From NCBI GenBank assembly GCA_002269645.1, contig NIVC01004402.1:1-47034 (forward strand): 47,034 nt of DNA, in the 5' to 3' direction. The stretch is from Macrostomum lignano (taxonomy: Eukaryota). Below the pieces are notes generated by a model. That model was not told where the DNA came from. It did no database searches and saw only the letters and a list, made by a program, of their open reading frames with translations. This document shows, piece by piece, positions 27,708 to 44,244 of the stretch. The translations under genes and the position numbers were made by a program. Every line of letters starts with the position of its first letter. Positions within the stretch are counted from its first letter, which is position 1.

Positions 27708-28120
27708 AGTAGTAGGGCGAATTATGACACCGCCGCACCAGCACCGGCGAGACAGGCGGCAATGCAAATGCACAGGGAAAAATACACTGCGGAGATATGA
27801 GCCCTATCTCTGTGCATTGGGGACGGCTAAGCACTGCAGAGATATGAGCTCTATCTCTGTGCATTGGGGACGGCTAAGCACTGCAGAGATATGAGCTCTA
27901 TCTCTGTGCATTGGGGACGGCTAAGCACTGCAGAGATATGAGCTCTATCTCTGTGCATTGGGGACGGCTAAGCACTGCAGAGATATGAGCTCTATCTCTG
28001 TGCATTGGGGACGGCTAAGCACTGCAGAGATATGAGCTCTATCTCTGTGCATTGGGGACGGCTAAGCACTGCAGAGATATGAGCTCTATCTCTGTGCATT
28101 GGGGACGGCTAAGCACTGCG
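27708..28120 (+). repeat. Left TIR including seven 47-bp tandem units
   Basis: Reverse complement of 43999-44244. Units GAGATATGAGCTCTATCTCTGTGCATTGGGGACGGCTAAGCACTGCA at 27792-28120. A degenerate internal copy of the TIR tip lies at ~28137-28250. Confidence 0.95.
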
Positions 28121-28467
28121 GAGATAGAGGCGATTCATGATACTGCCGCACTAGCACTGGCGAGATAGGCGGCAAAAAGGATATAGGAAAAATACACTGC
28201 GGAGAGGATCCTATCTCTGTGCATTGGGAACGGCTAAACATTGCAGAGATAAGAGGGGTGGCCAATCTCTGTGCTCTGTGTTAGGGTAAGGTTATAAAGT
28301 TTTACAACTGCACAGAGGACGGCTGGTGTTGCTTACCTGGATAAGGGGACGGGGGGATACACTAATTACAGCCGGTGGCCTCTATAACGGTAAAGTAATT
28401 ATTACCTGAGCATGGCTGGATGTTCATATACGATATGATAAGGAGAGGGCATGCATGTACAAATTAC

Positions 28468-28475
28468 TATATAAG
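28468..28475 (+). promoter_or_regulatory. TATA box TATATAAG of ORF1
   Basis: About 103 nt before ATG 28578. The same octamer precedes the ORFs starting at 43638 and 36709. Confidence 0.6.
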
Positions 28476-28577
28476 CAGCCACGCAAGTACAAATAAACAA
28501 ATAGACAAAAACAAAATTGTATAAAAGGATTTTTAAAAACCTTACTACTTCTAAAAAACAACTCTTTCTCTTTCAAA

Positions 28578-29873
28578 ATGAAAACTTTTAAAAGTTGTCA
28601 TAGAGACCTCTATGAGGTCTGTATAAGCTGCGAAGTGTGCCTGCTTGGAGGCGTGTCCCCAAGACACCACGAGAATGAGAACTGTCTGGTCTCATGCTGG
28701 TTGGCATGCGACCAGTGCGGCACCGTCGAAGCTCTGCAGGAGGGAAAAATTCCAGCATATCATCGAGGACACAGGATCGTCAGCGATGACAAGAAAAAGC
28801 AAGAAAGTAACCGCTGGAAAGTAATCCGCGCCATCAAAAAGAGCAACGAGAGAGAAAAGAAGATCCAGCAGAAAAAGGGAGCCAGCAGGAGTCTGCTATC
28901 AGCTCACTTGAGTCAAGTAATTGACTCTACATTGAAGAGGATGAGGCCAAGCGGGTCTTCAGCAGCTGCAGAATTTGAAGTTGAGCTGTCTGCTGGAGTC
29001 GAGGCTGCTGGAGTCGAGGCTGCTGGAGTCGAGGCTGCTGGAGTCGAGGCTGCTGGAGTCGAGGCCGCTGGAGTCGAGGCTGCTGGAGTCGAGGCTGCTG
29101 GAGTCGAGGCTGCTGGAGTCGAGGCCGCTGGAGTCGAGGCTGCTGGAGTCGAGGCTGCTGGAGTCGAGGCTGCTGGAGTCGAGGCTGCTGCTGTCATAAA
29201 CTTCATAGAGGAAGATGTCCTGGATCAGTTCCTCAGGGAATTCAACGCTGGTCAGCAGCAGCAGCAACCTGTCTCTTCGGTTCCGGTGATTGCTGGAAAA
29301 CAACTTCATCTAATTGAAGACGACCACGAAATGGAAATCCTAGAAGAGGAGGGCAGCGACAATGAGTCGCATAATGCAATTGTGCCACCTGCAGCTCCAG
29401 CCGCCCCAGCTGCTCTGGCCGCCCCAGCTGCTCTGGCCGCCCCAGCTGCTCTGGCCGCCCCAGCTGCTCTGGCCGCCCCAGCTGCTCTGTCCGCCCCAGC
29501 TGCTCTGGCCGCCCCAGCTGCTCCAGCCGCCCCAGCTGCTCTGGCCGCCCCAGCTGCTCTGGCCGCCCCAGCTGCTCCAGCCGCCCCAGCTGCTCTGGCC
29601 GCCCCAGCTGCTCCAGCCGCCCCAGCTGCTCTGGCCGCCCCAGCTGCTCTGGCCGCCCCAGCTGCTCTGGCCGCCCCAGCTGCTCCAGCCGCCCCAGCTG
29701 CTCTGGCTGCCCCAGCTGCTCCAGCCGCCCCAGCTGCAGCCTCTACAATTCCAGCTTCTCAATCCGAAACTCCACCCGTGCCAGCTGGAGTTGCCTTCTT
29801 TCTGCCTCCTGTCGGCGGGGCTGGGTACGAGGTAACGATTTTCGAAAATCGTATTAGAATTGTGCCGCTGTGA
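28578..29873 (+). CDS. Polinton accessory ORF1 (431 aa): Cys/His-rich N-terminus, basic NLS-like stretch, EAAGV and AAPAAL repeat blocks, acidic/Gln segment
   Basis: Intact ATG-stop ORF with a TATA box. The 15-bp and 18-bp repeats both keep the frame. Confidence 0.75.
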   Translation: MKTFKSCHRDLYEVCISCEVCLLGGVSPRHHENENCLVSCWLACDQCGTVEALQEGKIPAYHRGHRIVSDDKKKQESNRWKVIRAIKKSNEREKKIQQKKGASRSLLSAHLSQVIDSTLKRMRPSGSSAAAEFEVELSAGVEAAGVEAAGVEAAGVEAAGVEAAGVEAAGVEAAGVEAAGVEAAGVEAAGVEAAGVEAAGVEAAAVINFIEEDVLDQFLREFNAGQQQQQPVSSVPVIAGKQLHLIEDDHEMEILEEEGSDNESHNAIVPPAAPAAPAALAAPAALAAPAALAAPAALAAPAALSAPAALAAPAAPAAPAALAAPAALAAPAAPAAPAALAAPAAPAAPAALAAPAALAAPAALAAPAAPAAPAALAAPAAPAAPAAASTIPASQSETPPVPAGVAFFLPPVGGAGYEVTIFENRIRIVPL

Positions 29874-30758
29874 CTAAGCAATTTTTGTACTTTTTTGCTT
29901 TCTGTGTGGAGTGAGAAATCTACCCATTTATTGCAATTATTGCTAAAACTTTATTTCAACTAGCTTTTTAAAGTTGAAAGTAGGTACATTAATTAATGAT
30001 TTGATCATCTCATAACTCTGTATTCGCTTCTAGGAATCTTGCTTATAAGTTTTCAGTTTTCATTTCCAAATTAGTTTTAAAAAAAGCTCGTAGCTCGTAG
30101 TGGCAACCAATATTTTTTTGGTATCCGAGGTAAAAAAAATTATTTGAAAAGTAGGTGAAACATTATACAGTTGAATTTAACAAATTAAAATCAACATAAC
30201 ATACTTTCAATAAATTGGTGATGGTTTCGTATGCTTGGTGCGATTGATTAGGTATAATTTTCTTTCTACTGCTTTGACGCGGTGTTTCCTCATTCTTTAA
30301 TTATTGAACTTTTCAGCTATATTTCTGCTTCTAAACTCTCGTCTGTATTTTTAATTCATTGTTCCATGCATTGTTTATTGACTATGATTGCACCATGTGA
30401 ATTCGATAATTTTTTAAAAAAATATATACATATAATGTCAGCATTTTTCCACTCGGTGATTGGTTTGTTAATTAACTATTGGCTTCATTTTGCATTTTTT
30501 ACCGATTGAGTCTGCGTAGGAGGCAAATAGAAACGAACTTTTACGAATAGGGATCAATAGAATATGCATGCAGAGAGCTAGCTTAAGGGAGAACCAAAAA
30601 AATATAACCAGCATCTACTAGCTTGTAAGTGTGGATATTGTACCAGTATTGCAGCAATAAAGACTTACGAAAAAGATTTCCAATATTCACTCCCAGTTGC
30701 TTATGACACTCAGTTGCAGCCAGTAAACACTGTCAGCTTTTAACTGCTTGCCTTTTCT

Positions 30759-33700
30759 ATGGTTGAGCACTCCTGGATGGAGCAGGAGAATGACCACTCA
30801 TGGATGGAGAATGACCACTCATGGATGGAGAATGACCACTCATGGATGGAGAATGACCACTCATGGATGGAGAATGGCCACTCGTGGATGGAGGATGACC
30901 ACTCGTGGATCGAGTATGACCACCCTTGGGTGGACCATGACGTCAGCAGCGAGTCAGCAGCCAGCAGCGAGTCGGCAGCCAGCAGCGAGTCGGCAGCCAG
31001 CAGCGAGTCGGCAGCCAGCAGCGAGTCAGCAGCCAGCAGCGAGTCAGCAGCCAGCAGCGAGTCAGCAGCCAGCAGCGAGTCAGCAGCCAGCAGCGAGTCA
31101 GCAGCCAGCAGCGAGTCAGCAGCCAACAGCGAGTCGGTGACTGATGCACACCAAGGTAAGTGCCTTTATTTATCCTTTTCAACTTACTTAAAAATTTTCT
31201 TATCAATGCGATGTATATTATGCAGTCTAAAATTTTAGTCCAAAGAATGGGAGAAGGGGAGATAAAAGACTTTATACCGGTAGGGTTGTACATGTATGCT
31301 TGGGTACAGACGTTTAGTTTAGTATCTTTGATATTTGAAACTATAGGCAGCAAAAAACAAAAATATTATCCTAAAACCACAAACCAGGTTCAACAGTCAG
31401 CTTCAGCAGAGTTGCCCAAGCCTATGATCAATCACTGGAAATACTGAGGCTCAGATCGAGTCACCCAGACACGCTTCCGTCAGAATTTTTTGTCCAAGCT
31501 GGAGACAAAATTATTGAGGCAGTTCAGCAAAGAATTTCAAGACATCATTACAAAGTTCAGCTAAAGGCGAATATTCGAATGGTCCGAATAAGAGATGGGG
31601 AGATGCTTGCCGAAGAGGACAGATGGATAAGCTGTAAAATGCAGGCCCTAGACCTAGGTGGTGAAGCAGGCCGTTTAAACAACTGGTTGATTGAGCAGGA
31701 GCAGGAGTTGGAGAGGATCTGTAGTATGATTAATACGAACGGCAGTGGCTGGACAATTAAACAAATTAATTTTCTAGACATCAACCTTGCCAGGTACAAT
31801 CCAATTCGATTTCGCCAGGGCAGAGCCGTTAGATTCAATCTTCCTGCCAGTTTGAAGAACAAAAAGGCTGTTATCAATCCACCGAGCACAGGCAAAGACT
31901 GTTTCCTGTACGCCTGTCTCGCTGCACTGCACAGCGCCGATCCGAAAGTTCAGAAATCGCCCAACAGAATATCCTCTTACGATGAATGGTTGCGTGAGCT
32001 GGACTTTGCAGAAATCTCCATGCCAGTGAGTGTCGCTGATATCGATCGCGTCGAGTCTAACAATCCAGGAATTTGCATTTCTGCGTTCTCTTGGCAGCAG
32101 GGCAGTGTGACTCTTCTCCGTCGCCGCAAGCATGAGTCAGATGACCGAAGACACCTCATGCTTTTGCTAGTTAAAGACAGCTACGGATCGGAGCACTGGT
32201 GTGCAATTACTAATTTTGACAGGTTAATGAACAGTCGTAATGGTCCCGCCATGAGGAAGTGGTGCACGAAATGTTTAACATCATTTTATAGCAACGAGAG
32301 GCTTCAAGAGCACAGGAACGAATGCAGCATTACTGCAGAAAATCCTGTCAAAGAAACGCTTCCAGTTCCAGGACAGAATGAAATAAAGTTCCGAAACTGT
32401 CAAAACACTGTCAGTCCACCATTCGTTGCCTATGCCGACCTGGAAGCCATTTTGCGAGCGAACACAGACCCTGCTAACCTGATCTCAAAGCATGAACCAT
32501 GTGCAGCAGCTTTTCTTGCAGTGCCTCGTGAAGGCATGACAGGACCTCCGCTTAGGCCAGAAGGAGACATGTACAAGGTCTTTTGCAATGCGGACCCTGA
32601 TGAGTGTATCCTTGGTTTTCTCAAATCTCTTGAAAGCCTGGCTCAGGATATATTTCACTGGAACCAGAAGCATAGCCACCAGCCGGCTGACCGATCATCC
32701 GCGACCGTCATGGATGATTTCAATTCTGCTGAGGTATGTCACTACTGCAAGAAGAACTTTAAAAGTTCTACAGATAAACATTTTGACCACGATCATTTAA
32801 ATGGACAGTACAAAGGTGCAGCATGTCAAGAATGCAACCTGCGAGCACAGCTCCGACGCCGGTTTCTGCCCCTGGTTTTTCACAACTTAGGCGGCTACGA
32901 CCTTCATCTTCTACTTTCCACTGCGCTTGGGAGCATGAAAAATTGGAAACTTAGTGTTGTTCCGCAATCATCCGAGCGATACTTGTCACTAAGGGCGGAA
33001 TTCCCTGTTGCAAGTTACGTAAAGAACGGAAAAGTTGTGCCAATCATGTTTACAATTCAGTTCATCGACTCGCTCTGCTTTTTGAAGGGAAGTTTGTCCA
33101 ATTTGTTTGCTAATCTTCCCGAAGCTGAATGCAAGCTGACAATGCAAATGCTTGAGTCAAGACCACATCTTTCAAGAGAGCTACTTCGAAAAAAAGGGAT
33201 TTTCCCATATGATTACCTCACAGGATTTGAGATTCTCGAGCAGTCGGTTTTGCCACCTAAAGATGCTTTTTTTAATCGACTTTCCGATAGGGGAATTTCC
33301 GACGACGACTACAATAGAGCAAGAGCGGCATGGGCGGCATTTCAATGCAAAAGTTTGAAGGATTATATGCTCGCCTATCTTGAAATGGATGTAAGGCAGC
33401 TGGCTGACATTTTCGAGACATTCCGACAGGCCAGTCTGAAAGAGGACGGATTGGATCCGGTACACTACTTTACTACTCCTGGTTTGTCTTACGACTCAGC
33501 TCTAAAGTCGACTGGAGTGGTTCTAGAGCAGCTGACTGATGCTGACATGTATCATCTGTTTGAGAAGGGAATACGAGGAGGCATGTCCTTCATTAATGTG
33601 CATTGCGTCAAAGGTAATAATCCTAGCTTGCCAGGTTATGATGATCAGCAAGAGAGTGTAAGCCTCATGCCGATCGATATGAACAACTTGTATGGCTTTG

Positions 33701-35037
33701 CCCTGTCGCTTCCGCTTCCATGCAGGGAATTCAGGTGGGTACCGGAACAGGAAATCCAGTTCTGGGACTCCAATCGGTTTCTGTCACTCAATCCAGAAGC
33801 CGAGATCGCCTACCTTGTTCAACTCGATCTAGAATACCCAGCTGAGATTCACGATTCGACTCAGGAGTTACCGTTTGCACCTGAAAAATCAAAACCACAG
33901 CCAGATCAATTCTCGCCGTACATGGCCGAACTATGGAAAGAGATTGCTGAACAGCGAACTGGCAATGCTGAAGCTAAGTTTCAAGCAACGGAGAAGCTTC
34001 TACTCACCTGTACCGACAAGGATTCTTACGTAGTTCACAGCACCGTTTTAAGATTTTACCTGCAACACGGAATGCGGATCAAGTGCGTCAAAAAAATGAT
34101 TTCGTTCAAGCAGGAAAATATTTTCGCGCCGTACATTGCCAGCAACAATGAAAAAAGAGCTTTGGCAACTTCCGAGTTTGCTAAGGATTTTTACAAATTG
34201 AAAAACAATTCTCTCTTTGGAAAAACTATGGAGAACGTTCGAAAAAGATGCGATGTTCGAATTTGCACTAACCAGACTCAAGCAGAAACTTGCGCCTCTC
34301 GACCAAACTGTGCCGCATTCTCGATTATCAATGAGTCGTTGAGCATTTTTCAGCTCAAAAAAGATAAAGTCACGCTTGACAAGGCCATTTTCGTTGGCCA
34401 GGCAGTTCTCGATCTCTCTAAGATGGCCATGTACAGCCTACTATATGACAGGCTCCGACCGCTGTTCTGTCATTCAGACGGTTCCAGAGACATGATGCTT
34501 TGCGGAGGTGATACTGACTCATTTTTTCTAGCTTTCAAGAATCATGATTTAACATCGGAGGTAATCCCGAAGCTTAGAGAGGAAAAAATACTTGACACAT
34601 CCAACTATTCTCGAGACCATCCGCATTTCTCTGAAGAGTTAAAAGGAAAGCTGGGCTGCGTTAAAGATGAATCTGCTGGTGGAATTTACCAGGAGTGGAT
34701 TCTTTTGCGTCCAAAACTTTATTCGTTTCTCCCTGCCGAGAATTCGAGTGCAAAGATCAAGAAAACTGCCAAAGGCGTGAAGCAGTCAGTAGTAAGACAG
34801 CAAATTTCGCATGCGAACTATGTCGACGCGTTCGAGTCCAAGCAAGAGCAGATGGTTGCCATGACAGCGATTGTTTCCAAGAAACACGAAATCTTCACGT
34901 CGGTCATGGAGAAAAGAAGCCTATCGGTGTGGGAGGATAAGCGAGTGTGGCTTAGCAGTAATCGAAGCCTGCCCTACGGACACTATGCGCTGACGCCCGC
35001 ATCCCACGATCAGCTGAAGCGCATCCGACTGGTCTAG
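30759..35037 (+). CDS. polB: Protein-primed family B DNA polymerase (pPolB); spliced model 30759-31155 + 31388-35037 = 1348 aa (unspliced ORF 31579-35037, 1152 aa)
   Basis: DCFLYACLAALH, C2-type Zn motif, ExoI YADLE, endonuclease-VII-like CHYC..HFDHDH..ACQECN, FHNLGGYD, FIDSL, KGIFPYD, IRGG, DMNNLYG, KLKNNSLFGK, GDTDS and KTAKGV. Intron 31156-31387 is GTAAGT...CTAAAAC...CCAG, phase 1 to phase 1. Confidence 0.95.
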
Positions 35038-35618
35038 TGCGGGTGTTTAACAGACTGTTTAGTACTTTTTCTTGCTTTTAGAGTTGTTTAAATTGCCAAA
35101 TTCTGTTTTAAATGTAGTGACTTGCATGTAGTAACTTTTACAAATTTGTATGCTTGGCTAATTGCGCTAGATTTAGCTGTCAATTTGTTTTTGCGGCGTG
35201 AAATATTGATATCAATTTAAGTTTTACTTTTTATAAAGCTGTGGCAAGTGCGCTCATACAATATTAATTCATTTTTGTTTGCTTTGTGTACTACTTGTTT
35301 AAAATGTGTTTTTGGTTTTTATCTGACATAAATTGTTCCTGTAAATTCAATCAGCGTTTTAATCATATTTTCTCTATCACTTTTCTATTTCTCTTCTCTC
35401 GGTGCACATCGTTTGTTATAACGATGGTAGTATTGTTTACTTTCGGATTTGATATGCGTTTTGCGATACTTTTGGTGATGGGCTAAATACGTTTTTGAAG
35501 TGTTCCATAGCTGTCTGCCTGGGAAAATGAATGTAAAGAATACTAAGTTTATCCTTTTATTCACTTTTCACTAATCATTGAAATATTTGCGGCAAATTGC
35601 TTGACTTGACTTTTATTT

Positions 35619-36190
35619 TTATTCAATGGAAAGAACTACATTGAGTAGACGCATGCTATCGGTATGCAACTGATTCAAGGACCGAGCTCCACTGAGAACA
35701 AAAGAGCCGCTGTGAAAAAGCAGACATTTACAAAAGTTTAAATTGAAAATTAAAGCAGAAAAGGATTCTGGTTCATATTCGGCGTTTGGGATAATTGATT
35801 TTAACATTAATAAGGAAAGTGCGGAATGAACTGGGAGCTGTCCATGAGCAGTAATAGTTTTAATTCGAACACAAATTGTTTGATGAGGCAGCAGTTGAGC
35901 CGGCACTCTCCGATGCAGCATAGCCACGAAGCGACGGGCAGCCCTTTTGGCGTCTGCGTGGGTCTTGGCACCGCAGATGCTCAGTTGCCCAGTAGGGTAG
36001 AGTAGCAGAGTCACTCTGGGAATCGCATCCGCTTGATGAGCACCCGGGGCCAGACGGGCCGGTAGATCACATGAGCCATGCTGAGAGCCAGTTCCCGTAG
36101 AGGCAGCTGAGCGCCCCTGCCACCATCCAGTCTCAGATCTACTCCGCCAACCAGATTGGTCACTCTTAGGGCTGTAGCTGGTGGGCTCAT
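35619..36190 (-). CDS. TATA-binding protein (TBP)-like protein, ~190 aa after restoring one base at 36018-36020
   Basis: Repeat 1: LRVTNLVGGVDL...LPLRELALSMAHVIYRPVWPRVLIKRMRF[P]RVTLLLYPTGQLSICGAKTHADAKRAARRF. Repeat 2: RIKTITAHGQL...NAEYEPESFSALIFNLNFCKCLLFHSGSFVLSGARS. Both match TBP core patterns (QNIV, YNPKRF, TALIFSSGKMVCTGAK, RLAARKY, YEPELFPGLI, LLIFVSGKVVLTGAK). Confidence 0.88.
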
Positions 36191-36224
36191 TTCGATCGTC
36201 AACTTCTTCACCAAATCTGCTTCT

Positions 36225-36709
36225 GCCAACTTTACTGCTCGTGTGCCACGGACACTGCTCGCTTCTTAAGTTGATGCAGAACTTTGGCTTAAGCCAACTG
36301 TAGTGCAGCAACGAATTTCTCACTGCACAGCCAGTATCTGAATCTTCAGTCGAGGGTGCTCCCAAATCTTCTAGGTTATAAACCTGTCTTCCAAGCAGCT
36401 CAGTCAGAAAAATCGACTTCCTTTCCCCATTTGACCAGATCGGACCACTGGCAATGCTCAGAATGTCTTCCGCCAGTTCCATGTACGGACGGGTTCCATC
36501 ATTCCACTTAAACTGGTGCAGACTCTTAGATAGCTGTCTGTAGTAAACTCGCATGTCAGGTGAGACTCTCTCCCATGGATACGGAGGTGCGTACACATGG
36601 TGAGCAATGCGGTAGCTCCCCGCTCTGATTTGAACAACTGCCAACTCCTTCACAACAAATTTTTTGCTTGTGCTGTTGCACGGAATCCTTGGAAGTCAAT
36701 GTAGTTCAT
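36225..36709 (-). CDS. Polinton accessory protein, probably RNase H-fold/DEDD-exonuclease-like (3' end uncertain; frameshift at 36660-36665)
   Basis: MNYIDFQGF...[K]KFVVKELAVV...APPYPW...LHQFKW.DG..PY...I...G..K..FL......LEDLGAP...CA.RN resembles the small conserved IDxQGF/FxxKELA protein recalled from invertebrate Mavericks. As assembled it runs through into the TBP C-half. Confidence 0.55.
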
Positions 36710-36750
36710 GATGCAGCTTTCCTTCGAAAATTTCGGAGTCAGTCCACCTT

Positions 36751-36758
36751 CTTATATA
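36751..36758 (-). promoter_or_regulatory. TATA box TATATAAG upstream of the exonuclease-like/TBP pair
   Basis: 42 nt before ATG 36709. Confidence 0.55.
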
Positions 36759-36809
36759 CTTTTCTGGCAGGCAGTTTCAGCCAGGCTGTGTTGCTCCCGT
36801 ACCCCTTGA

Positions 36810-37429
36810 CTAGACTCTCCTGTTCTTTCTCCAGTTCACCCCTCTGCTGGTTGCCATTTTCTTCTTAACTGATTTACCAATAGCGGAAAGCGGAACATTA
36901 AGCTTTTTCTGCTGCAGAAAATCGATGAACTCGTTCCACCCAACTGGTTCACGCTCACATGGCGAATCCCTCACTGCGTGCTGAATCAAGTCCAGTATGT
37001 TTGAGGAAGGGATTGACGTGCCTGCGATTTCCACCTCCCCGTTTTCACAAACTCGAATCAGCTCTGGATTGGTGGACAGGATCGTCCACAGACTGCGAGC
37101 CCTGGTTTTGAATTTCTGTGGCACCGACTTGCTGATCTTCTCTTCCCAGGTGTTATCTGGGGTGTCTCTGTTTTCATCAACTTGGCTTCAGTATTTCGTG
37201 ATCCTTCTTTTCCAGCGTGCTTGCGCTTGGCCAGCAAACTTTGCATTGCACTTTGGTACATGGCGGTTTTCACATCTTCTGGACAATCCTCGGCATACAA
37301 GATGTCATCGCATTTCTTCTGAGCCTGCTTCAAGTCAGCTTCAGTGGTAGTCTCATTTGGCTTCAAATTCTGCATCAACATCTCATACTCTGCTTTAGGA
37401 ATCAGAACCATTTCTGAAAATTTGTTCAT
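36810..37429 (-). CDS. Conserved Polinton hypothetical protein (~206 aa; two track ORFs joined by a 1-bp frameshift at ~37140-37185)
   Basis: C-half CENGEVEIAGTSIPSSNILDLIQHAVR...PVGWNEFIDFL...NVPLSAIG matches a recalled Maverick-conserved pattern (GEV.I.G..IPGSNI.DL...P.GW). Confidence 0.65.
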
Positions 37430-37732
37430 TTTGCTTCTTCTTCTTTACCAGCTTAAGCAGAATCGGGAGTATTTTGATGAAGCCAGCCTTCAACAAGTCT
37501 GTCTTTCTTCTTTTGTGAGTAATTTTTCGAATTATCTCTTTTGACTTTGCAAGAACAGCTTTTTCATCGAGCGAAAACGATAGATTGTTTTGTAAGAGAT
37601 TATGGCAGGCCTCGACAAGAAAATAACGCACTTCTTTTGGACAATTTTTTATCAACAGCCGCTTGAAGCGCACGGTATATTTAGGTGACGCAAGAACCGC
37701 AAAAAACTTGCATGTGAATCAAGCACTTCCAT
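37395..37732 (-). CDS. Small basic Polinton protein, putative virion core protein (~112 aa; frameshift at 37680-37682)
   Basis: MEVLDSHASFLRFLRHL[K]YTVRFKRLLIKNCPKE..LVEACHNLLQNNL.....K..L.K.K.IIRKI....LLKAGFIKILP resembles the Maverick E(C/A)ALN.L.GN...GGFL family. Confidence 0.6.
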
Positions 37733-38454
37733 AGCGATGAAAACAATAGCTGATAAAAACAAGCTTCACTTTCACTTTCAAATACAAGATGGGGTCGCTG
37801 GTTGGGCAAAATTCTGGCCCGCACTCGCAGCTCATCGGGAGTTGATGGGTGAAAATCCAGGAACAGGTAAGCTCCCCTGCCCTGCGCGGTCACGTGCTTG
37901 AACACTGACAGCAGAAAGCCGGGCTTCTCTGTAAAGCACTGCCTGCCCAGTGCTGCAATCTGCAGCTGGTCTCTGGGGTTTTTCAAGATAGCTAAATACA
38001 TTACATTCAAGCTCATTGTTCGCGACTCTTTTCCCTTGAAAAATATATTCTGAGTCAGCATCACCAAGAAGCACGGCAAGTGATGTGCGATTCCTGTGAA
38101 AAAATTTCGCATTGAAGCAGAGTTTGAAGTTTCCTCTATTAAGTCATCGAAAACAACCAGGTCATTGGGCCTAAGTGCTGCCTCGATGTTGGTGGGAAAT
38201 CCCTGGCGCAGCTGCACACCTAGGCTGCTCAGTTCTGCATGGCCTGCCTGTGAGATCCCATAGTACCACAGAACTCTGCCAGGCTTCACATCAAACATGA
38301 CGTCTCTGTACTGGATCAGGTGTTTGACAAAGGTTGTTTTTCCTGCATTGGTGGGCCCGCAGACAATCATGCAGCTTCCCTGCCTGAGGCGGATATCGTA
38401 GCAAACTTGCTTTTCTCCCATGTTTAATGCATAAATATTAGAAATCACGGACAT
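37681..38454 (-). CDS. A32/FtsK-like genome packaging ATPase
   Basis: Walker A GPTNAGKT, Walker B LVVFDDL, LTQNIF and RTMSLN..Y..ILKNPRD. Confidence 0.95.
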   Translation of the reverse strand: MSVISNIYALNMGEKQVCYDIRLRQGSCMIVCGPTNAGKTTFVKHLIQYRDVMFDVKPGRVLWYYGISQAGHAELSSLGVQLRQGFPTNIEAALRPNDLVVFDDLIEETSNSASMRNFFTGIAHHLPCFLVMLTQNIFFKGKESRTMSLNVMYLAILKNPRDQLQIAALGRQCFTEKPGFLLSVFKHVTAQGRGAYLFLDFHPSTPDELRVRARILPNQRPHLVFESESEACFYQLLFSSLWKCLIHMQVFCGSCVT

Positions 38455-38956
38455 CTTTTTCTTAAGTTGGCTTCAAACCTCTGTAAGATTCTATCATTCA
38501 AATGATTTTTTCATTAGCATGCAAATGCTTCAAAATCCCCTCAAATGACCGATTGAACAGAAACTTTTGATAAGCAAAATAGATGCAAAACACTCCGCAT
38601 TTATTAGAGTTAGCACATTGAACTCTGTTTATATTGCTTCGGAGCCAAAAGCCAGTTGTTTTAATCTCTCGAAACAAATTATAAACCAAAGATAAAATTT
38701 CAGGTTCCCAGCCGAGGGAGTTGAACAACTCAATGCGATTTCCTTGCCCAACATAGCACACCACCCAGTGACCAAATGAGCCATTGTGCTGAAGTAGGAC
38801 AAAAACAAACTTGTTTTCAAAGGAAATTGATGATCTAAATTTTCTTTTTACATTCAAGGGCAGAGAATTTTTATAGCGCAAATGTAAAGTAACTATGAGA
38901 AATTTTTGGTAAGGCAAAAATTTTCTGGCGAGATTAAGTAGTTGAATTGCATCCAT
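38445..38956 (-). CDS. Adenain-like cysteine (maturation) protease; C-terminus continues after a 1-bp loss at 38506-38511
   Basis: GHWV, ELFNSLG and RVQ...SNKCGVFCIYF. The corrected tail is NEKNHLNDRILQRFEANLRKRCP*. Confidence 0.9.
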
Positions 38957-38961
38957 GTCAA

Positions 38962-40244
38962 TTAAGATGAATAGTCCAGCAAAAGCTCTCGGTGCTTGGT
39001 GACCTCAATCAGCGAGTCATACAGGCACATAGCAATCAGGGACACCGCTTCATTCAGAGCCTGTTGGAAGCGAATCTCCAGCCGCAGGTTGCCCTCCTTC
39101 TGTCCGTACCACAGAGCCGCTCCCTCGGGTGTGAGATCGAATGCAAACACCGTGCTGTTGTTGGAGAAGAGCTGGTAGGGGATCCACGGACCGAGTTTGT
39201 GTGGCTTGCAGATTGACAGCTTTTCAGGTAGTGCAAGTATTCTCTTACAAAGGAATTGTTTTCAGGTGTGAAGGCGCCGTGGCACACGGTTTCCCCACCT
39301 TTCTTTAGAGCCAATCGGCTAAGGTTGAAGCTCTGGAACTGGAACGGGCTCGCGTGATGATGACCGTTGAATGCTCGGTGGCTCACGAAGGCCAGCATGA
39401 TAAACTTCGGCAATTTTCCATGAGTGAATCCTTCAATGTTTTTTGACTGAATACCCTGGGGTAGGATGAAGTTCTGCATTTCAGTTCGCTCGATGGGATA
39501 CAGTGCATTTTGGTTTGTCAGCCCCTGCTCATGGGCCAGGCTGATGTGGGGCATCACTTTGACTCGGCGAAGATGCAGAATGCTGTGAGAGATTTCCATT
39601 CGGTATGCCGCGTTGTTTGCATTCGGGGTTCTGATGGCAAAGGCCCCATCGCTGGGGACCAGTTTGATGTGCAGGTGCAGATTGCTTAGCAGAAACACTG
39701 GGCACTGGAAAACATCGCTGAAGAGCGGCCCCGCATACTCCATCCATTGGGATTCCCTGTGGCTCTCCGTGTGCTCTTCAGCTGCCGAGTTCGGCTCCAG
39801 GAAGCCAGCAGGGTAAAGTTTTAGTTGCTGGGCATCGGATGAGCTCATTAGTGCTTTGAAGTACGCATGGTAGGGATAGAGCTGGTCTCCACCAGACACC
39901 ACTCGCTGGTTAATGCTCACAATTACATCTGAGAAGGCTGTAGACAGAACAAAATTTTCTGGGTGCACGTCACTGTCTCTGCGCTCGGTGATGATGCCAT
40001 CTCCATCTCGAACATCCTCCCTCAGCAAACCCCCATCCAGTCTCACAAGGCGGCAGCGAATATAAAGAAAAGAATTCAGCAGATCTGTGTATTCATCGGC
40101 AGATTGGTGGCAGTCAAATTCAATGGGAGAGTTTGCAACAATGGAATTAACTGGGTGAATATCAACATAAGTAGCTTTTTCAATGCAGGTTTGTAGAACG
40201 GGCGTCTTAAATAAATCAAGTCTGGGATTGAATCCGTAAGCCAT
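38962..40244 (-). CDS. Major capsid protein (double jelly-roll, Polinton PY), ~427 aa; 1-bp frameshift at 39221-39224
   Basis: LDLF..P..QT.IEK, PIEF, YTDL.NS.L, F..V.V.IN, GKLPKFIMLAFV..AF.G, PFQF..FNL. The C-terminal VFAFDLTP..GNLRLEIRF..AL...V..I....YDS.IE lies in the -1 frame. Confidence 0.92.
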
Positions 40245-40246
40245 GT

Positions 40247-40624
40247 CTATGACAGAGAGTCGAGCACGCGTTTCACAGTTTTCTTGCTGACTTTTTGCTT
40301 TCGCTTTCCTCCGCCTGCTCTATTCTTCTTTGCTTTCGTCTTCCTATTCTTAAGCTTTTTCCCACTAGCCTTGCTCGACCTCTTACTGCGATTTCCACCA
40401 GTTGCCTTTCGGGTGCCCTTCTTTTTCTTCAATCGTTTCGGACTTGCTTCAGTATTTCTTTTGCGCCTGACGTTGCTAAGCGTCGAGGCTGATGATGATG
40501 ATATAGCCGCTGGCGGAGGCTGGTATGTCATGATCCCTGGGAAGCTCCCACAGCCATAGAGTGCAGGCTTTTCGTGTCCTGTCCTCACCCCCGAATATTG
40601 CTGGATTAGCTGCTGGTAGTTCAT
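40247..40624 (-). CDS. Lys/Arg-rich putative DNA-condensing core protein (~125 aa)
   Basis: ATG 40624 overlaps the penton stop (ATGA). LYGCGSFPG motif followed by a highly basic C-terminus. The stop abuts the MCP ATG. Confidence 0.65.
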   Translation of the reverse strand: MNYQQLIQQYSGVRTGHEKPALYGCGSFPGIMTYQPPPAAISSSSASTLSNVRRKRNTEASPKRLKKKKGTRKATGGNRSKRSSKASGKKLKNRKTKAKKNRAGGGKRKQKVSKKTVKRVLDSLS

Positions 40625-41430
40625 TGAATGCGTTTCTCCTGAATTTGAACTGTAAGCAGAACAGGGCTGTGAGTCTGTGCAATCAGTGGGCAACCATAGA
40701 TGTCACGGAGCTGAACTCGAATGCTGTGAAGAAGACTGATTCGTTGAATCGGGAAGAATATTGTTTTCTTAAATATTTTTGTTTGATAGTTGCCCCATTC
40801 AATGCCGGCTTTCATTCCAACTGTTCTCAACAAGGAGCTCCAGTTGCAATTAGTTGACTCAACGATACTGCAGTGCACATTGATTAAGCTGGTGCGCGGG
40901 CAGCCAATGCAATGCTCGGACACGCGGCTCCCTGGCTGGATTTTCACAGCCTGGTTTCCAAATCCCAGCCAATGCAGAATTTTACTAGATGGAAGAAACA
41001 GCTCTGCTCTCGCAGTGTTGTTGTGCACCACAGTTCGTGAGTTGTGGATTTCGAACTTCATACCGAATTCCCTGTTGCCACTACGCCCCATCAGGCCGGA
41101 CTCATCAGCCTCCATCTCAGACTCCCTGTCACTCATTGCATCAAAGAACAGCGAATCAGAGTTGGCCAGCAGCTCATTCAGGCGCTCCACCAGCTCCTCC
41201 ACTCTAGCAAAGCGTCCGGGTTGAAGAACCAGGGCCTCATGCTCTCTTCCATCTGAGACAGTGAAGCAGTAAGGCTCGTCAACATTGAACCATGCAGCAG
41301 GCAGATGGATTTCAGCCAGACCTGCCTCATAGTCCACATTTCGATCCAAGTAAATAGGTGAAGGCAGGTAAAAATTAAAGTCACTAGGAGTACCTTCAGC
41401 ATGCTCACTGTTAATCAAAATAGTTCGCAT
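40621..41430 (-). CDS. Minor capsid (penton, single jelly-roll; Polinton PX)
   Basis: GTPSDFNFYLPSPIYL...YEAGLAEIHLPAAWFN and INVHCSIVE...LLRTV...SIRVQLRDIYGCPL. First ATG is at 41430 (the track start at 41448 is TTG). Confidence 0.85.
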   Translation of the reverse strand: MRTILINSEHAEGTPSDFNFYLPSPIYLDRNVDYEAGLAEIHLPAAWFNVDEPYCFTVSDGREHEALVLQPGRFARVEELVERLNELLANSDSLFFDAMSDRESEMEADESGLMGRSGNREFGMKFEIHNSRTVVHNNTARAELFLPSSKILHWLGFGNQAVKIQPGSRVSEHCIGCPRTSLINVHCSIVESTNCNWSSLLRTVGMKAGIEWGNYQTKIFKKTIFFPIQRISLLHSIRVQLRDIYGCPLIAQTHSPVLLTVQIQEKRIQ

Positions 41431-41467
41431 TATAATGATAAACTTCAAGATGAGGGATGTGCCAAAG

Positions 41468-42538
41468 CTAAACCTTTCTTAAGTCTTTTTCATCCACCCA
41501 GCCAGTCGAGTCGTAGCCCGCTCATTTCACCAGATAGCGAATTTTTCCCTTCCGCTTCTCCGTTTTCAGGATCTTCTCAATCACATACAGCCGCTGTGAG
41601 TCCGGGACAGCCTGCAGCTCGTGCTCATGGAAGAGTCCTCGAATCTCTTGCCCCCGCATGTCTTTAATCTTGTACATGTAGGGATAATGTTTTGGGGCTC
41701 TGCTCACCACGGTGTACACTTCCTCACTCCAGCTCGCTTTGTATCCCTTTTTGAATAGCCGTGGAGCATTGGAAATTCTCACTGACTGGTTTTCAGCGAA
41801 TTTAGGCTTCCTTAATTTTTCTAGAGTCTCGACTGCTTTTCCGTCGTACAGGTTCATCCACACTTCAGATTCATTCTCTTTGCAGACACTAGTGGGTGCC
41901 ATTTTGATGCTTCTGTGGTAGGTATTGTTGTAGGATTTTACCAGCTTAGGCAGCACATCAAGCCAGTGCAGTGTGCTCTTGTAGGTGAAGTAGCGCCACA
42001 TTCTACTTTTCAGAGTCCGATTCCATCGCTCAATGACAGCCGCCTTCTGCTCGCTGTTAGTTGGGAAAGCCAGAATCCCTCTGTCAATGCAGTATTGACG
42101 GAAAGTGGAGTTGATAAATTCCTTCCCCTGATCTGTGCGAACTGTGCGCGGCTGTCGCTTTGAACTTCTCAGTATGCTCTCGAATGCTGACTTCACTTCT
42201 GCAGCAGATTTATTTTTCAGTGCCTTGGCCCAAGCACATTTTGAGAGCACGTCAATGCATGTGAGAATATATTTGTAGCCTTTATTATGCTTTGCAAATG
42301 GAATCATTTCCACTAAGTCAAGTTCCCACTGATCATCGATTGCGCGCACTATGATTGGGGCCCTTGGATATCGCCTCCTAGCTGGCTTGTGCAGAGTGTG
42401 CACTGGCTGCTCGCTGAGCCACTGCTCAATGCTCTTTGCAGATATTCGATCACCTCTTTGCCTCACTTCATGCAGCAACTTTGAGGCACAAGAAAAACTA
42501 GCCGGTTGCTCAGGTTTCAAATAAATTTTCTCCATCAT
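41468..42538 (-). CDS. int: Retroviral-type (c-INT/rve) DDE integrase with C-terminal chromodomain interrupted by TGA at 41522-41524
   Basis: QWELDLVEM, YILTCIDVLSK, VRTDQGKEF and IERWNRTLK. Tail YVIEKIL..EKRKGKIRYLVK*AGYDSTGWVDEKDLRKV*. Confidence 0.95.
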
Positions 42539-42864
42539 GGGTTTATCAAGATACGTGCCTATCCACCTGCTCTAGCTGTACAGTATTTTTTCTTAAGTAG
42601 AAATTTATATTCCAATTAAATGATAGAGAAACGAGTGGCAAATTAATTTATTACTGTCAGATTGAAACCTCTAACATCGTAACAGTCGGTGTATTTTCCG
42701 AAAGCAAACAATCCATAAAAACGAACACTAAAACACTCGCACACCAGCATTTCAGAAATAGCAGAGATAAAAAACAGCATAGTGCCGTCAGATATAGGCT
42801 GGATAATCATGTGCAAGCTAAAAGTAATTTAGTTAGTCCAATGCATTCAAAGCATTCTAGCTGT

Positions 42865-43638
42865 TCAGTTATCAAAGCGAACATTGGGCAGCCTCATCGC
42901 GTCCTGCCGACGAAGTTGAAATGGCAGCTTTCGCTTCCTGCTGCTGCTGCTCACCGTCGAAGCCGCTGCATGCGCCCTGAACTGATACCACACCGGATCT
43001 TCCTCAAGGTTGGTGTCCCGCTGCGGAAGCAGTCCAGCATCAGAATCAACCAAAGGTATCGGTGTGGATGTGATAGGCTCAGTCACAATGCGCGGCCTTG
43101 TGGGCGAGCTAACGTCCTCGTCATCAGCATGCTCTCCGCCCTCATCAGTCTCCATTATGGGCTTCGTGTCCTGGTCAGCCTCCAACTTGAGCTTCTTGTC
43201 CTCTTCCTCCTCTTCCTCATCAGACTCCAGCTCGTACTGCATTGAGTTCCTCAAGGGAGCCACCAGCTGACCGTCGATCCAGGAGGCGATTTTCCAGAGC
43301 TTCTGCCACAGCGGCGGAGTCAGTGGTACGGCGTTTCGTCTCAAAAACTCCTCGCAGCAATCTTCCGGCAGCCGTTTGAGCCAAATGATGCCGCCTTTGA
43401 CTTCCACAAACTTATCGAAGCCGAGTTTCACGACCTTGGGCTCGTTGTTGCGTGCAGAAATCACAAGTGAGCGTTTCACCTCCTTCAATTTCTTCCATTG
43501 GTGAACATTCAGGTTGAATCCTGGGACGCCTGGCTTCAGACTTGCCGTGCTGCCGTGTCGGTAAAACTTGCGAATAGCGATAAATTTTTGTCCTTCAAAC
43601 TCCTGGACTTGTGCCTTATAGCCTTCACAGATGTCCAT
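42865..43638 (-). CDS. PC4/Sub1-like ssDNA-binding/coactivator protein with two tandem PC4-like repeats and an acidic tail (257 aa)
   Basis: KAQVQEFEGQKFIAIRKFY....SLKPGVPGFNLNVHQWKKLKE matches PC4 YVSVRDFKGKVLIDIREYW...[20 protein letters not shown]. A weaker second repeat is LGFDKFVEV..IIWLKR...AVPLTPPLWQKL...ID. Confidence 0.8.
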   Translation of the reverse strand: MDICEGYKAQVQEFEGQKFIAIRKFYRHGSTASLKPGVPGFNLNVHQWKKLKEVKRSLVISARNNEPKVVKLGFDKFVEVKGGIIWLKRLPEDCCEEFLRRNAVPLTPPLWQKLWKIASWIDGQLVAPLRNSMQYELESDEEEEEEDKKLKLEADQDTKPIMETDEGGEHADDEDVSSPTRPRIVTEPITSTPIPLVDSDAGLLPQRDTNLEEDPVWYQFRAHAAASTVSSSSRKRKLPFQLRRQDAMRLPNVRFDN

Positions 43639-43742
43639 TTTCCTTTCGCAATTGAAAACTCACAAAAGTTAAAAGCTGAGGAAAAGTTCGGATGAAATTT
43701 TGGATTTGAAAAATTGAGAATTCTTTCTTGTCAGTTTCGGGG

Positions 43743-43750
43743 CTTATATA
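43743..43750 (-). promoter_or_regulatory. TATA box TATATAAG of the PC4-like gene
   Basis: 105 nt before ATG 43638, mirroring the left-end ORF1 promoter. Confidence 0.6.
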
Positions 43751-43998
43751 CCCTCGACCGAACCACCCCAAACCACCCATCCCACTCCGGGCTCTGTGAT
43801 TGGCTCTTTCGCAAACATTATTTCCAATTACATAGATTAACATTCATTCAGCTAAGCTAACCCACTCCATCCTATCTCTGCAGTGTTAACCACCCCCAAT
43901 GCAAAGAGATAGGCCGCCTCTCCTCCTATCTCTGCAGTGTTAACCATCTCCAGTGTAAAGAGATAGGCCGCCTCTCCTCCTATCACTCCAGTGTTAAG

Positions 43999-44244
43999 CA
44001 GAGATAGAGCTCATATCTCTGCAGTGCTTAGCCGTCCCCAATGCACAGAGATAGAGCTCATATCTCTGCAGTGCTTAGCCGTCCCCAATGCACAGAGATA
44101 GAGCTCATATCTCTGCAGTGCTTGGCCGTCCCCAATGCACAGAGATAGGGCTCATATCTCCGCAGTGTATTTTTCCCTGTACATTTGCATTGCCGCCTAT
44201 CTCGCCAGTGCTAGTGCGGCAGTATCATAATTCGCCCTACTACT
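43999..44244 (-). repeat. Right TIR including ~3.5 copies of the 47-bp unit
   Basis: Reverse complement of the left terminus. Seven C/T differences were seen in the first ~140 bp. Confidence 0.95.

Follow-up and report, generated by a model that had tools for sequence, protein, structure and literature searches.

The 47,034-nt stretch of Macrostomum lignano DNA analysed here (contig NIVC01004402.1; hereafter the window) contains a Polinton/Maverick element at 27708-44244, in which the same non-standard TATA-like box precedes most genes of the capsid module. On sequence evidence the signal is a strand-specific 8-mer, (C/T)(A/T)TAAGAA (YWTAAGAA), resembling a TATA box with G at position 6. Because this box recurs upstream of most capsid-module genes and the element also encodes a TATA-binding protein (TBP), our analysis suggests that these genes are switched on through a private factor, the element's own TBP. 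We regard it as fairly probable that the box is an element in TATA position and is read by this TBP together with the RNA polymerase II (Pol II) of the host, in the style of the viral TBP (vTBP) and TATT boxes of herpesviruses.

The original prediction had proposed a palindrome, CTTAAG, as a motif recurring upstream of gene starts. Its eight positions in the element (30582, 36265, 36288, 37452, 38461, 40349, 41478 and 42592) were correct, with one other copy in the remaining 30.5 kb of the window (27241); the identical 9-mer ACTTAAGAA was indeed found four times on the minus strand, and the polB coding exon was free of CTTAAG as claimed (none in polB exon 2). An exact count, as had been suggested, gave 8 CTTAAG versus 2.57 expected (nominal P = 0.005), which is weak alone, this being the best of 64 palindromic hexamers; two further 9-mers also occur four times in the element, so that the 9-mer count alone is weak too. 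Since raw counts are weak, the case for the motif rests on position and conservation. The suggested test of positional enrichment was positive: of the 10 gene starts in the block that runs from integrase to TBP, 7 have TTAAGAA 15-160 nt upstream (P = 0.005, corrected against the maximum over all 7-mers with random positions). The palindrome itself did not survive as the motif, two of its sites being lost in diverged copies and a second family (family B, see below) having ATAAGAA. YWTAAGAA, by comparison, occurs exactly seven times on the minus (coding) strand of the element, every time upstream of a gene start (Table 1), and the same is true of YWTAAGA(A/G). The seven include TTTAAGAA at 40766-40773, upstream of a basic core gene, which had been overlooked, and a TATAAGAA box at 36749-36756, which is overlapped by the canonical TATA TATATAAG at 36751. 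Most boxes fall inside the preceding gene's coding sequence. WTAAGA is strongly biased in strand (9 sense versus 1 antisense in the family of the window, family A; 8 versus 0 in family B). Three of the eight CTTAAG sites are left without support, 37452 and 36288 being incidental and 30582 unproven.

Conservation was counted over 54 family A loci, a set that contains near-identical copies as well as the stretch from the window itself; the denominators below are the loci that aligned. At the five CTTAAGAA sites the box is preserved in 15/15, 21/21, 17/17, 44/44 and 44/44 loci, and at the core-gene site in 19/19. Upstream of the exonuclease-like gene, WTAAGAA is kept in 46/46 loci, whereas the canonical TATATAAG is lost in 5 of 46; the placing of this gene under TATATAAG was right in that the TATA is present and wrong in that the gene is not purely of the TATA class. 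The sites at 37452 and 36288, both lacking the AA of the box, are lost in 8/49 and 8/44 loci, respectively. For 30582, near-identical copies were uninformative and no alignment to the diverged subfamily was obtained; the surrounding frame is closed in 21/21 loci read. One other candidate, 36868 (GTTAAGAA), was rejected as incidental: it has G at position 1 and is lost in 5/40 loci. In a subfamily 74-79% identical (two copies), all 7 genes for which the upstream stretch is available have the box there, often between unrelated flanks, and the PC4 gene retains its canonical TATA. Conservation across copies, another check that had been called for, was thus observed for the AA-bearing boxes, which persist in this subfamily at ~75% identity and at the orthologous genes of family B.

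Other Polinton families of the same host have boxes of their own. Family B (12 loci; ATPase 45% and major capsid protein (MCP) 40% identical to those of A; same gene order, with TBP) has CATAAGAA, TATAAGAA or CTTAAGAA upstream of 7/10 orthologous genes, and the box-to-MCP distance is 107 nt versus 110 nt in family A. All 8 sense matches lie in upstream windows amounting to 21% of the region, with 0 antisense (P = 0.0003). Canonical TATA boxes precede the TBP gene, the g123 gene and the polB N-terminus. Family B copies have only a short polB N-terminal piece between terminal repeat and integrase (L059, minus strand, about 1075-1600; L062), and the exonuclease-like/TBP block is inverted in one of them. 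For family C the pattern YWTAAG was set beforehand; this family repeats TATAAGCA, and YWTAAG scored 7/9, 4/7, 5/9 and 5/9 (P = 0.001, 0.015, 0.054 and 0.015). A TBP-like gene, searched for only after the family C box had been seen, lies ~7.7 kb from the ATPase gene (profile E 9e-14; best PDB match a TBP, E 8e-4). Family F repeats TATAAATA (5/7 and 5/7 genes), and its TBP-like gene is weak (Pfam E 1e-4, below cut-off; no PDB match to its profile). Within one host the boxes are therefore YTTAAGAA in family A, YATAAGAA in B, TATAAGCA in C and TATAAATA in F, and a TBP-like gene is present in all four.

Written in TATA register, the box is Y-W-T-A-A-G-A-A, with G6 in all cases, C or T at position 1 and T or A at position 2; it thereby differs from the canonical TATAWAWR, which has A at position 6 and T-A at positions 1-2. 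Of 39 boxes in six elements, 37 have a distance of 35 nt or more to the ATG. Downstream of the box, 8 out-of-frame ATGs occur in the 851 nt at +8 to +29 versus 4 in the 1435 nt past +31 (nominal P = 0.037; the sites are not independent). The two classes of upstream signal that had been proposed hold in that ORF1 and the PC4 gene have a canonical TATA and the capsid-module genes a TAAG box, with the palindrome discarded; TATATAAG is present at 28468 (+), 36751-36758 (-) and 43743-43750 (-), at distances that agree with those originally given. Judging by gene content, the second class would be a late one. Host sites of the NK2 or GATA type were considered and rejected, as the variable flanks of the box do not fit them.

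The candidate reader matches PF00352 in two stretches (Pfam E 8e-25). Modelled from another copy, it forms a full two-repeat saddle (predicted local distance difference test, pLDDT, 82) with Foldseek template modelling (TM) scores of 0.75-0.82 to cellular TBPs. Aligned to the host TBP (yeast numbering, placed by motif; residue list from PMC12529657), it retains N69, V71, F190 and F207 and has the changes F99->W/H, F116->Y, N159->T, V161->T, V122->S, V203->K and P191->S/N. The full set of four intercalating phenylalanines, two asparagines, P191 and a hydrophobic DNA face is not retained. According to PMC1636458, residues 194, 203 and 205 determine position 2 of the TATA box, P191 imposes a T at position 1, the 3' half of the box is the part recognised by the N-terminal repeat, and selections with wild-type TBP yielded no G at position 6. 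P191 is S/N in families A and B, where boxes often start with C; families A, B and C all conform to the P191 rule. V122 is a DNA contact that is polar in ORF24 of KSHV (Kaposi's sarcoma-associated herpesvirus) (PMC12529657) and, from the two-fold symmetry of TBP, would be placed over base pair 6; the five groups whose boxes have G6 show S, S, T, Q and Q at this position, and the groups lacking G6 show I, H or R. A second gene of the TBP family is present in the host, and the assembly contains three copies of it (L176, G000:C350). We take the host gene of L176 to be TRF2-like.

A wider survey combined 80 loci in 59 clusters from a metagenome scan with 5 loci from further scans; TBP-like genes are present in 8 of these 85. 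An ATPase tree was built of 56 rows (short or start-less rows were excluded), and all 9 TBP-bearing rows fall within one clade (99/94). TATAWAW is found 20-100 nt upstream of the ATPase gene in 20/28 rows outside this clade versus 5/26 inside (nominal P = 1.5e-4; rows related), and the box therefore appears to take the place of a canonical TATA. In distant Polintons a canonical TATA lies 34-73 nt upstream of the ATPase gene, the same distances as the box. Inside the clade, three metagenome loci (L086, L090 and L093) repeat YTTAAGC upstream of 6/8, 6/7 and 6/8 genes (P = 0.0013, 0.0013 and 0.042), and L152 repeats TATAAAC at 7/9 genes (corrected P = 0.005). None of six long outgroup loci repeats any 6- or 7-mer (P no lower than 0.93), and TBP had no match in eight outgroup loci, all of them partial contigs (6.6-14 kb). 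On these sequences, distant Polintons seem mostly to have a canonical TATA and no TBP. The viral contigs scanned contained one relative only, and when 1.8 billion representatives were searched with the TBP profile, most matches were TBPs of cellular type and came without context. Several further observations were made in the survey. TATAAAC lies upstream of the ATPase gene in 9/26 rows of the TBP clade (L152, L073, L096, L115, L118, L127, L137, L148 and L149) versus 1/28 outside. An octamer-like T-Y-A-Y-G-C-A-A-A, noticed post hoc, occurs 29-72 nt upstream of genes in a TBP-bearing metagenome clade (L094, L080, L091, L075 and L083). P0034 is a 415-residue fusion of a TBP-like domain and a Polinton packaging ATPase, and L199:5073-6389 (-), adjoining a Polinton polB, encodes a fusion of a C-terminal TBP-like fragment with a P-loop domain (presumably resembling deoxynucleoside kinase, by its motif). 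Four Polinton contigs (L151-L154) are within bacterial metagenome-assembled genomes, probably through binning contamination.

The mechanism that we propose would proceed as follows. Genes with a canonical TATA (ORF1, PC4 and a transcript reaching TBP via the overlapping TATA at 36751) would be started by host TBP alone. The element's TBP-like protein, once made, would read (C/T)(A/T)TAAGAA as a core-promoter element ~30 nt upstream of the transcription start throughout the integrase-to-TBP block, recruit host Pol II and so activate the capsid-module promoters. The resulting transcripts would be nested, with a common end downstream of the TBP gene. A bolder reading, which we put forward tentatively and hold to be possible rather than probable, is that late transcription in one Polinton clade is switched on by the elements themselves, through a captured TBP; its DNA face would have drifted hand in hand with a TATA variant private to each family (TTAAGAA, ATAAGAA, TATAAGCA, TTAAGC, AYGCAAA, TATAAAC), giving separate capsid programmes within one genome. 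Such a switch would be an independently evolved, one-protein equivalent of the late complex of herpesviruses, and the TBPs would make up a natural series of altered specificity, with tolerance of G6 governed by the residue at the V122 position.

A number of observations weigh against reading of the box by the element's TBP. Some concern the way in which the pattern was obtained: WTAAGA was fixed only after families A and B had been viewed, some start codons were picked by hand, and the AYGCAAA of L094/L080/L091 was found post hoc (15/56 open reading frames (ORFs) in 8 loci versus 2.9 expected), these three TBP-bearing loci not being enriched for YWTAAG (0/9, 2/8 and 2/6 for L094, L080 and L091). 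Others concern the association of box and protein. The TBP-bearing rows all fall in one clade, so that the protein and the repeated box may go back to a single event; that TBP is lacking outside this clade is based on the eight partial contigs of 6.6-14 kb; the TBPs of L086/L090 retain P191 though 7/18 boxes of that group start with C; and the weak TBP-like gene of family F goes with a canonical TATA, which host TBP could read. In family A the protease gene and g123 have no box, the box also precedes genes that do not encode capsid proteins (integrase, exonuclease-like, TBP), and no initiator peak was found near +30 downstream of boxes.

The alternative with most to be said for it, although we judge it unlikely, is that host TBP/TFIID or some other host factor recognises the box as a weak TATA, late expression following from template amplification and the element's TBP being otherwise employed, for example in competing with host TBP. 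By the titles of PDB entries, wild-type TBP forms crystals with TATA boxes altered singly at position 2, 6 or 7, including G(-26) and T(-30) (1qn5 and 1qna), which also counts against a private reader. TATAAGAA and TATAAGCA of families B and C deviate from TATA at one or two places, the family F box is TATAAATA, and the element's TBP has itself lost one of the two asparagines and one of the four intercalating phenylalanines (N159->T, F99->W/H, F116->Y). CTTAAGAA, however, deviates from TATAWAWR at three places, and the selections with wild-type TBP mentioned above lacked G at position 6 (PMC1636458). Moreover, a weak host site that drifts should often revert to A, yet G6 is kept at every orthologous site in family A, its diverged subfamily and family B, and four families of one host have four different boxes. 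An accident of coding or composition, with A-rich gene ends supplying Leu-Lys, Leu-Arg and TAA codons, does explain 37452 and 36288, and would suit the coding location of most boxes; for the box as a whole it is largely refuted, and we attach almost no probability to it. Shuffling synonymous codons over the whole region gave a marginal outcome (P = 0.04 for A, 0.012 for B, 0.26 for L086 and 0.27 for L090). As broken and overlapping frames were left fixed, this shuffle is underpowered, and per-site probabilities were used instead: the chance of all six coding sites arising by synonymous choice is 2e-8 in family A, and that of all five 3e-5 in family B. Given these products, the 2/40 comparable amino-acid contexts elsewhere that gave the motif, and the fact that frames and residues differ between the families, codon use does not explain the box. 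The strand bias of WTAAGA argues in the same direction, as do those boxes of the diverged subfamily that are intergenic and have unrelated flanks.

The core of the box, (A/T)TAAG, invites comparison with baculoviruses, as had been made in the original prediction: their late promoters are (A/G/T)TAAG, the letters TAAG lie upstream of structural genes in both systems, and TAAG is the start site of the viral RNA polymerase in Autographa californica multiple nucleopolyhedrovirus (AcMNPV) (PMC9786725). Transcription might then start within TAAG, carried out by the RNA polymerase of a nudivirus-, nimavirus- or baculovirus-like helper virus or by an unknown factor, and protist Polinton-like viruses are indeed described as having promoters in common with helper giant viruses. 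We nevertheless consider such an initiator very improbable. The likeness extends to the letters and not to the mechanism, since no RNA polymerase gene is among the element's ORFs and the spacing of the box is TATA-like; boxes avoid the first 34 nt upstream of the ATG, out-of-frame ATGs follow three family B boxes at 7-9 nt, and TATAAAC, TATAAATA or AYGCAAA stand at the same places in sister families, which points to a TATA register. Scarcely any credence is due to the idea that the box is an RNA-processing signal (branch point or trans-splice acceptor) resolving a polycistronic transcript. The packing of the genes is operon-like, spliced-leader (SL) trans-splicing in M. lignano affects ~30% of host genes (PMC8629364), and TTTCAG follows one family B box; but the host acceptor is YTNCAG according to the same source, the box has neither CAG nor a pyrimidine tract, 8/26 boxes have no YAG at all before the ATG, and the box replaces a canonical TATA that other elements have at the orthologous place. 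The reading of the box by the element's own TBP remains the one that we favour.

Its closest parallel is in beta- and gammaherpesviruses, whose late promoters (TATT, TATTWAA) are read by a viral TBP mimic: KSHV ORF24, BcRF1 of Epstein-Barr virus (EBV) and UL87 of human cytomegalovirus (HCMV) (PMC6541308, PMC12529657). Both systems have a modified TATA and a TBP of their own with a more polar DNA face (including the V122 position, polar in both). In the herpesviruses the modified TATA lies ~30 nt before the start, host Pol II is used and capsid genes are the targets; the same would apply to the Polinton, where the spacing from box to ATG fits such a location. In contrast to the herpesvirus proteins, the Polinton TBP is a stand-alone saddle of 190 residues without Pol II-binding and C-terminal domains, and its box is changed to G at position 6 instead of T at position 4. 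No homologues of the other five activators of the six-protein herpesvirus complex were found among the element ORFs. Poxvirus VITF-3, an atypical TBP/TFIIB pair (PMC12917281), likewise puts a virus-encoded TBP fold to use at stage-specific promoters; it differs in that its partner, in the cytoplasm, is a viral RNA polymerase, and no TFIIB-like partner was identified in the Polinton. Mavirus and Polinton-like viruses also repeat a single motif upstream of the capsid-module genes of a polB/integrase element. Their promoters, which they have in common with helper giant viruses, are read by the giant virus's polymerase, whereas the candidate reader in the Polinton is encoded by the element and not by a helper.

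In gene content the element resembles animal Polintons, Mavericks and adintoviruses (polB, rve integrase, adenain protease, ATPase, major and minor capsid proteins, terminal inverted repeats), and a TBP-like gene is named in adintovirus figure legends by Starrett et al. (10.1101/697771, PMC8502044). The word 'promoter' is absent from the main text of 10.1101/697771, PMC8502044 and PMC10748475 and occurs twice, in other contexts, in that of PMC8097293. No promoter box or TBP-driven programme was found in the Polinton literature, including these four and 10.64898/2026.06.19.733378, with figures, supplements and most subscription journals outside the scope of the search. It appears, then, that the principle is known from herpesviruses and that its occurrence in Polintons, with family-specific pairs of box and TBP, is undescribed. 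At stake is the way in which the capsid genes of Polintons come to be expressed, and whether a helper virus is needed for it. A defined box with a candidate reader makes this testable in a laboratory animal that has many copies and a transcribed polB; the box could be used to mark cells with an active capsid programme, and matched TBP/box pairs would show a natural change of sequence preference in a nearly invariant transcription factor.

The element is bounded by inverted repeats of 246 nt that end in AGT-repeats, the end motif of Polintons as given in PMC8097293. A 6-bp target site duplication was not found at the window copy, whose two flanks differ. Inside the terminal repeats is a tandem 47-nt unit (~7 copies on the left, 27785-28126; 3-4 on the right, 43999-44167). 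Pfam domains in the ORFs are DNA_pol_B_2 (polB), rve integrase, Peptidase_C5 (adenain protease), PC4 and TBP. The morphogenesis module comprises ATPase, adenain protease and major and minor capsid proteins; the packaging ATPase was assigned through homologues, the MCP matches an outgroup Polinton MCP at 32%, and the penton/minor capsid protein was assigned by position and family comparison only. The exonuclease-like label, which comes from the original prediction and a motif, is presumptive. Close copies are abundant in the M. lignano genome (148 scored ATPase matches), and in the window copy several genes are damaged (integrase end, MCP, exonuclease-like and TBP). An intron of polB at about 31153-31386 (GT..AG) is spliced out in one contig of run X4, and the element family is therefore transcribed in at least one sample. 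Polyadenylation hexamers lie downstream of PC4 (42652) and TBP (35623, 35617 and 35561), with 3 others within genes, a layout that would fit nested transcripts sharing one end.

Table 1. Genes, repeats and upstream signals of the Polinton in the window
Feature	Position	Strand	Remarks
Left terminal inverted repeat	27708..27953	.	246 nt, 97% complementary to 43999-44244
Canonical TATA TATATAAG	28468..28475	+	110 nt upstream of ORF1; kept in 18/18 aligned copies
Second canonical TATA TATAAAAG	28520..28527	+	58 nt upstream of ORF1 ATG; absent from the original prediction
ORF1, repeat-rich protein (TATA class)	28578..29873	+	
CTTAAG upstream of polB	30582..30587	+	without AA of box; status unproven
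Protein-primed polB	30759..35037	+	true first ATG uncertain
TBP-like gene	35619..36190	-	Pfam TBP; frameshift near 36020 in window copy
Exonuclease-like gene	36190..36709	-	no Pfam match; frameshift near start in window copy
Box CTTAAGAA	36263..36270	-	80 nt upstream of TBP, within exonuclease-like gene
Incidental CTTAAG	36288..36293	-	Leu-Lys codons; lost in diverged copies
Overlapping TATATAAG and TATAAGAA	36749..36758	-	47-49 nt upstream of exonuclease-like gene (box 47 nt); TAAGAA part conserved
Incidental CTTAAG	37452..37457	-	Leu-Lys codons; lost in diverged copies
Packaging ATPase	37681..38454	-	likely start 38421
Eighth box site, ATPase 3' end	37770..37778	-	in 33/40 aligned family loci; missing from window copy
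Box CTTAAGAA	38459..38466	-	45 nt upstream of Met 38421 (ATPase)
Adenain-type protease	38498..38956	-	without box
Major capsid protein (MCP)	38962..40244	-	frameshifted in window copy
Small Lys/Arg-rich core-like gene	40247..40624	-	
Box CTTAAGAA	40347..40354	-	110 nt upstream of MCP, within core gene
Penton / minor capsid protein	40621..41430	-	
Box TTTAAGAA	40766..40773	-	149 nt upstream of core-like gene
Box CTTAAGAA	41476..41483	-	53 nt upstream of penton, at integrase 3' end
rve integrase	41522..42538	-	premature end in window copy
Box CTTAAGAA	42590..42597	-	59 nt upstream of integrase, intergenic
PC4-domain gene (TATA class)	42865..43638	-	
Canonical TATA TATATAAG	43743..43750	-	112 nt upstream of PC4; retained in diverged subfamily
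Right terminal inverted repeat	43999..44244	.	

Some minor features of the window may be added. A TATAAA that the original prediction did not list is located at about 42609, 71 nt upstream of integrase and beside its box. The reading frame at 30433-30740, upstream of polB exon 1, has a Cys/His spacing reminiscent of zinc-finger remnants and is closed in 21/21 loci read. To the left of the element (1-27000) are host genes for an ankyrin/DHHC palmitoyltransferase and an Ig/FN3 adhesion protein and a piece of a C-type lectin gene, with introns filled by minisatellites.

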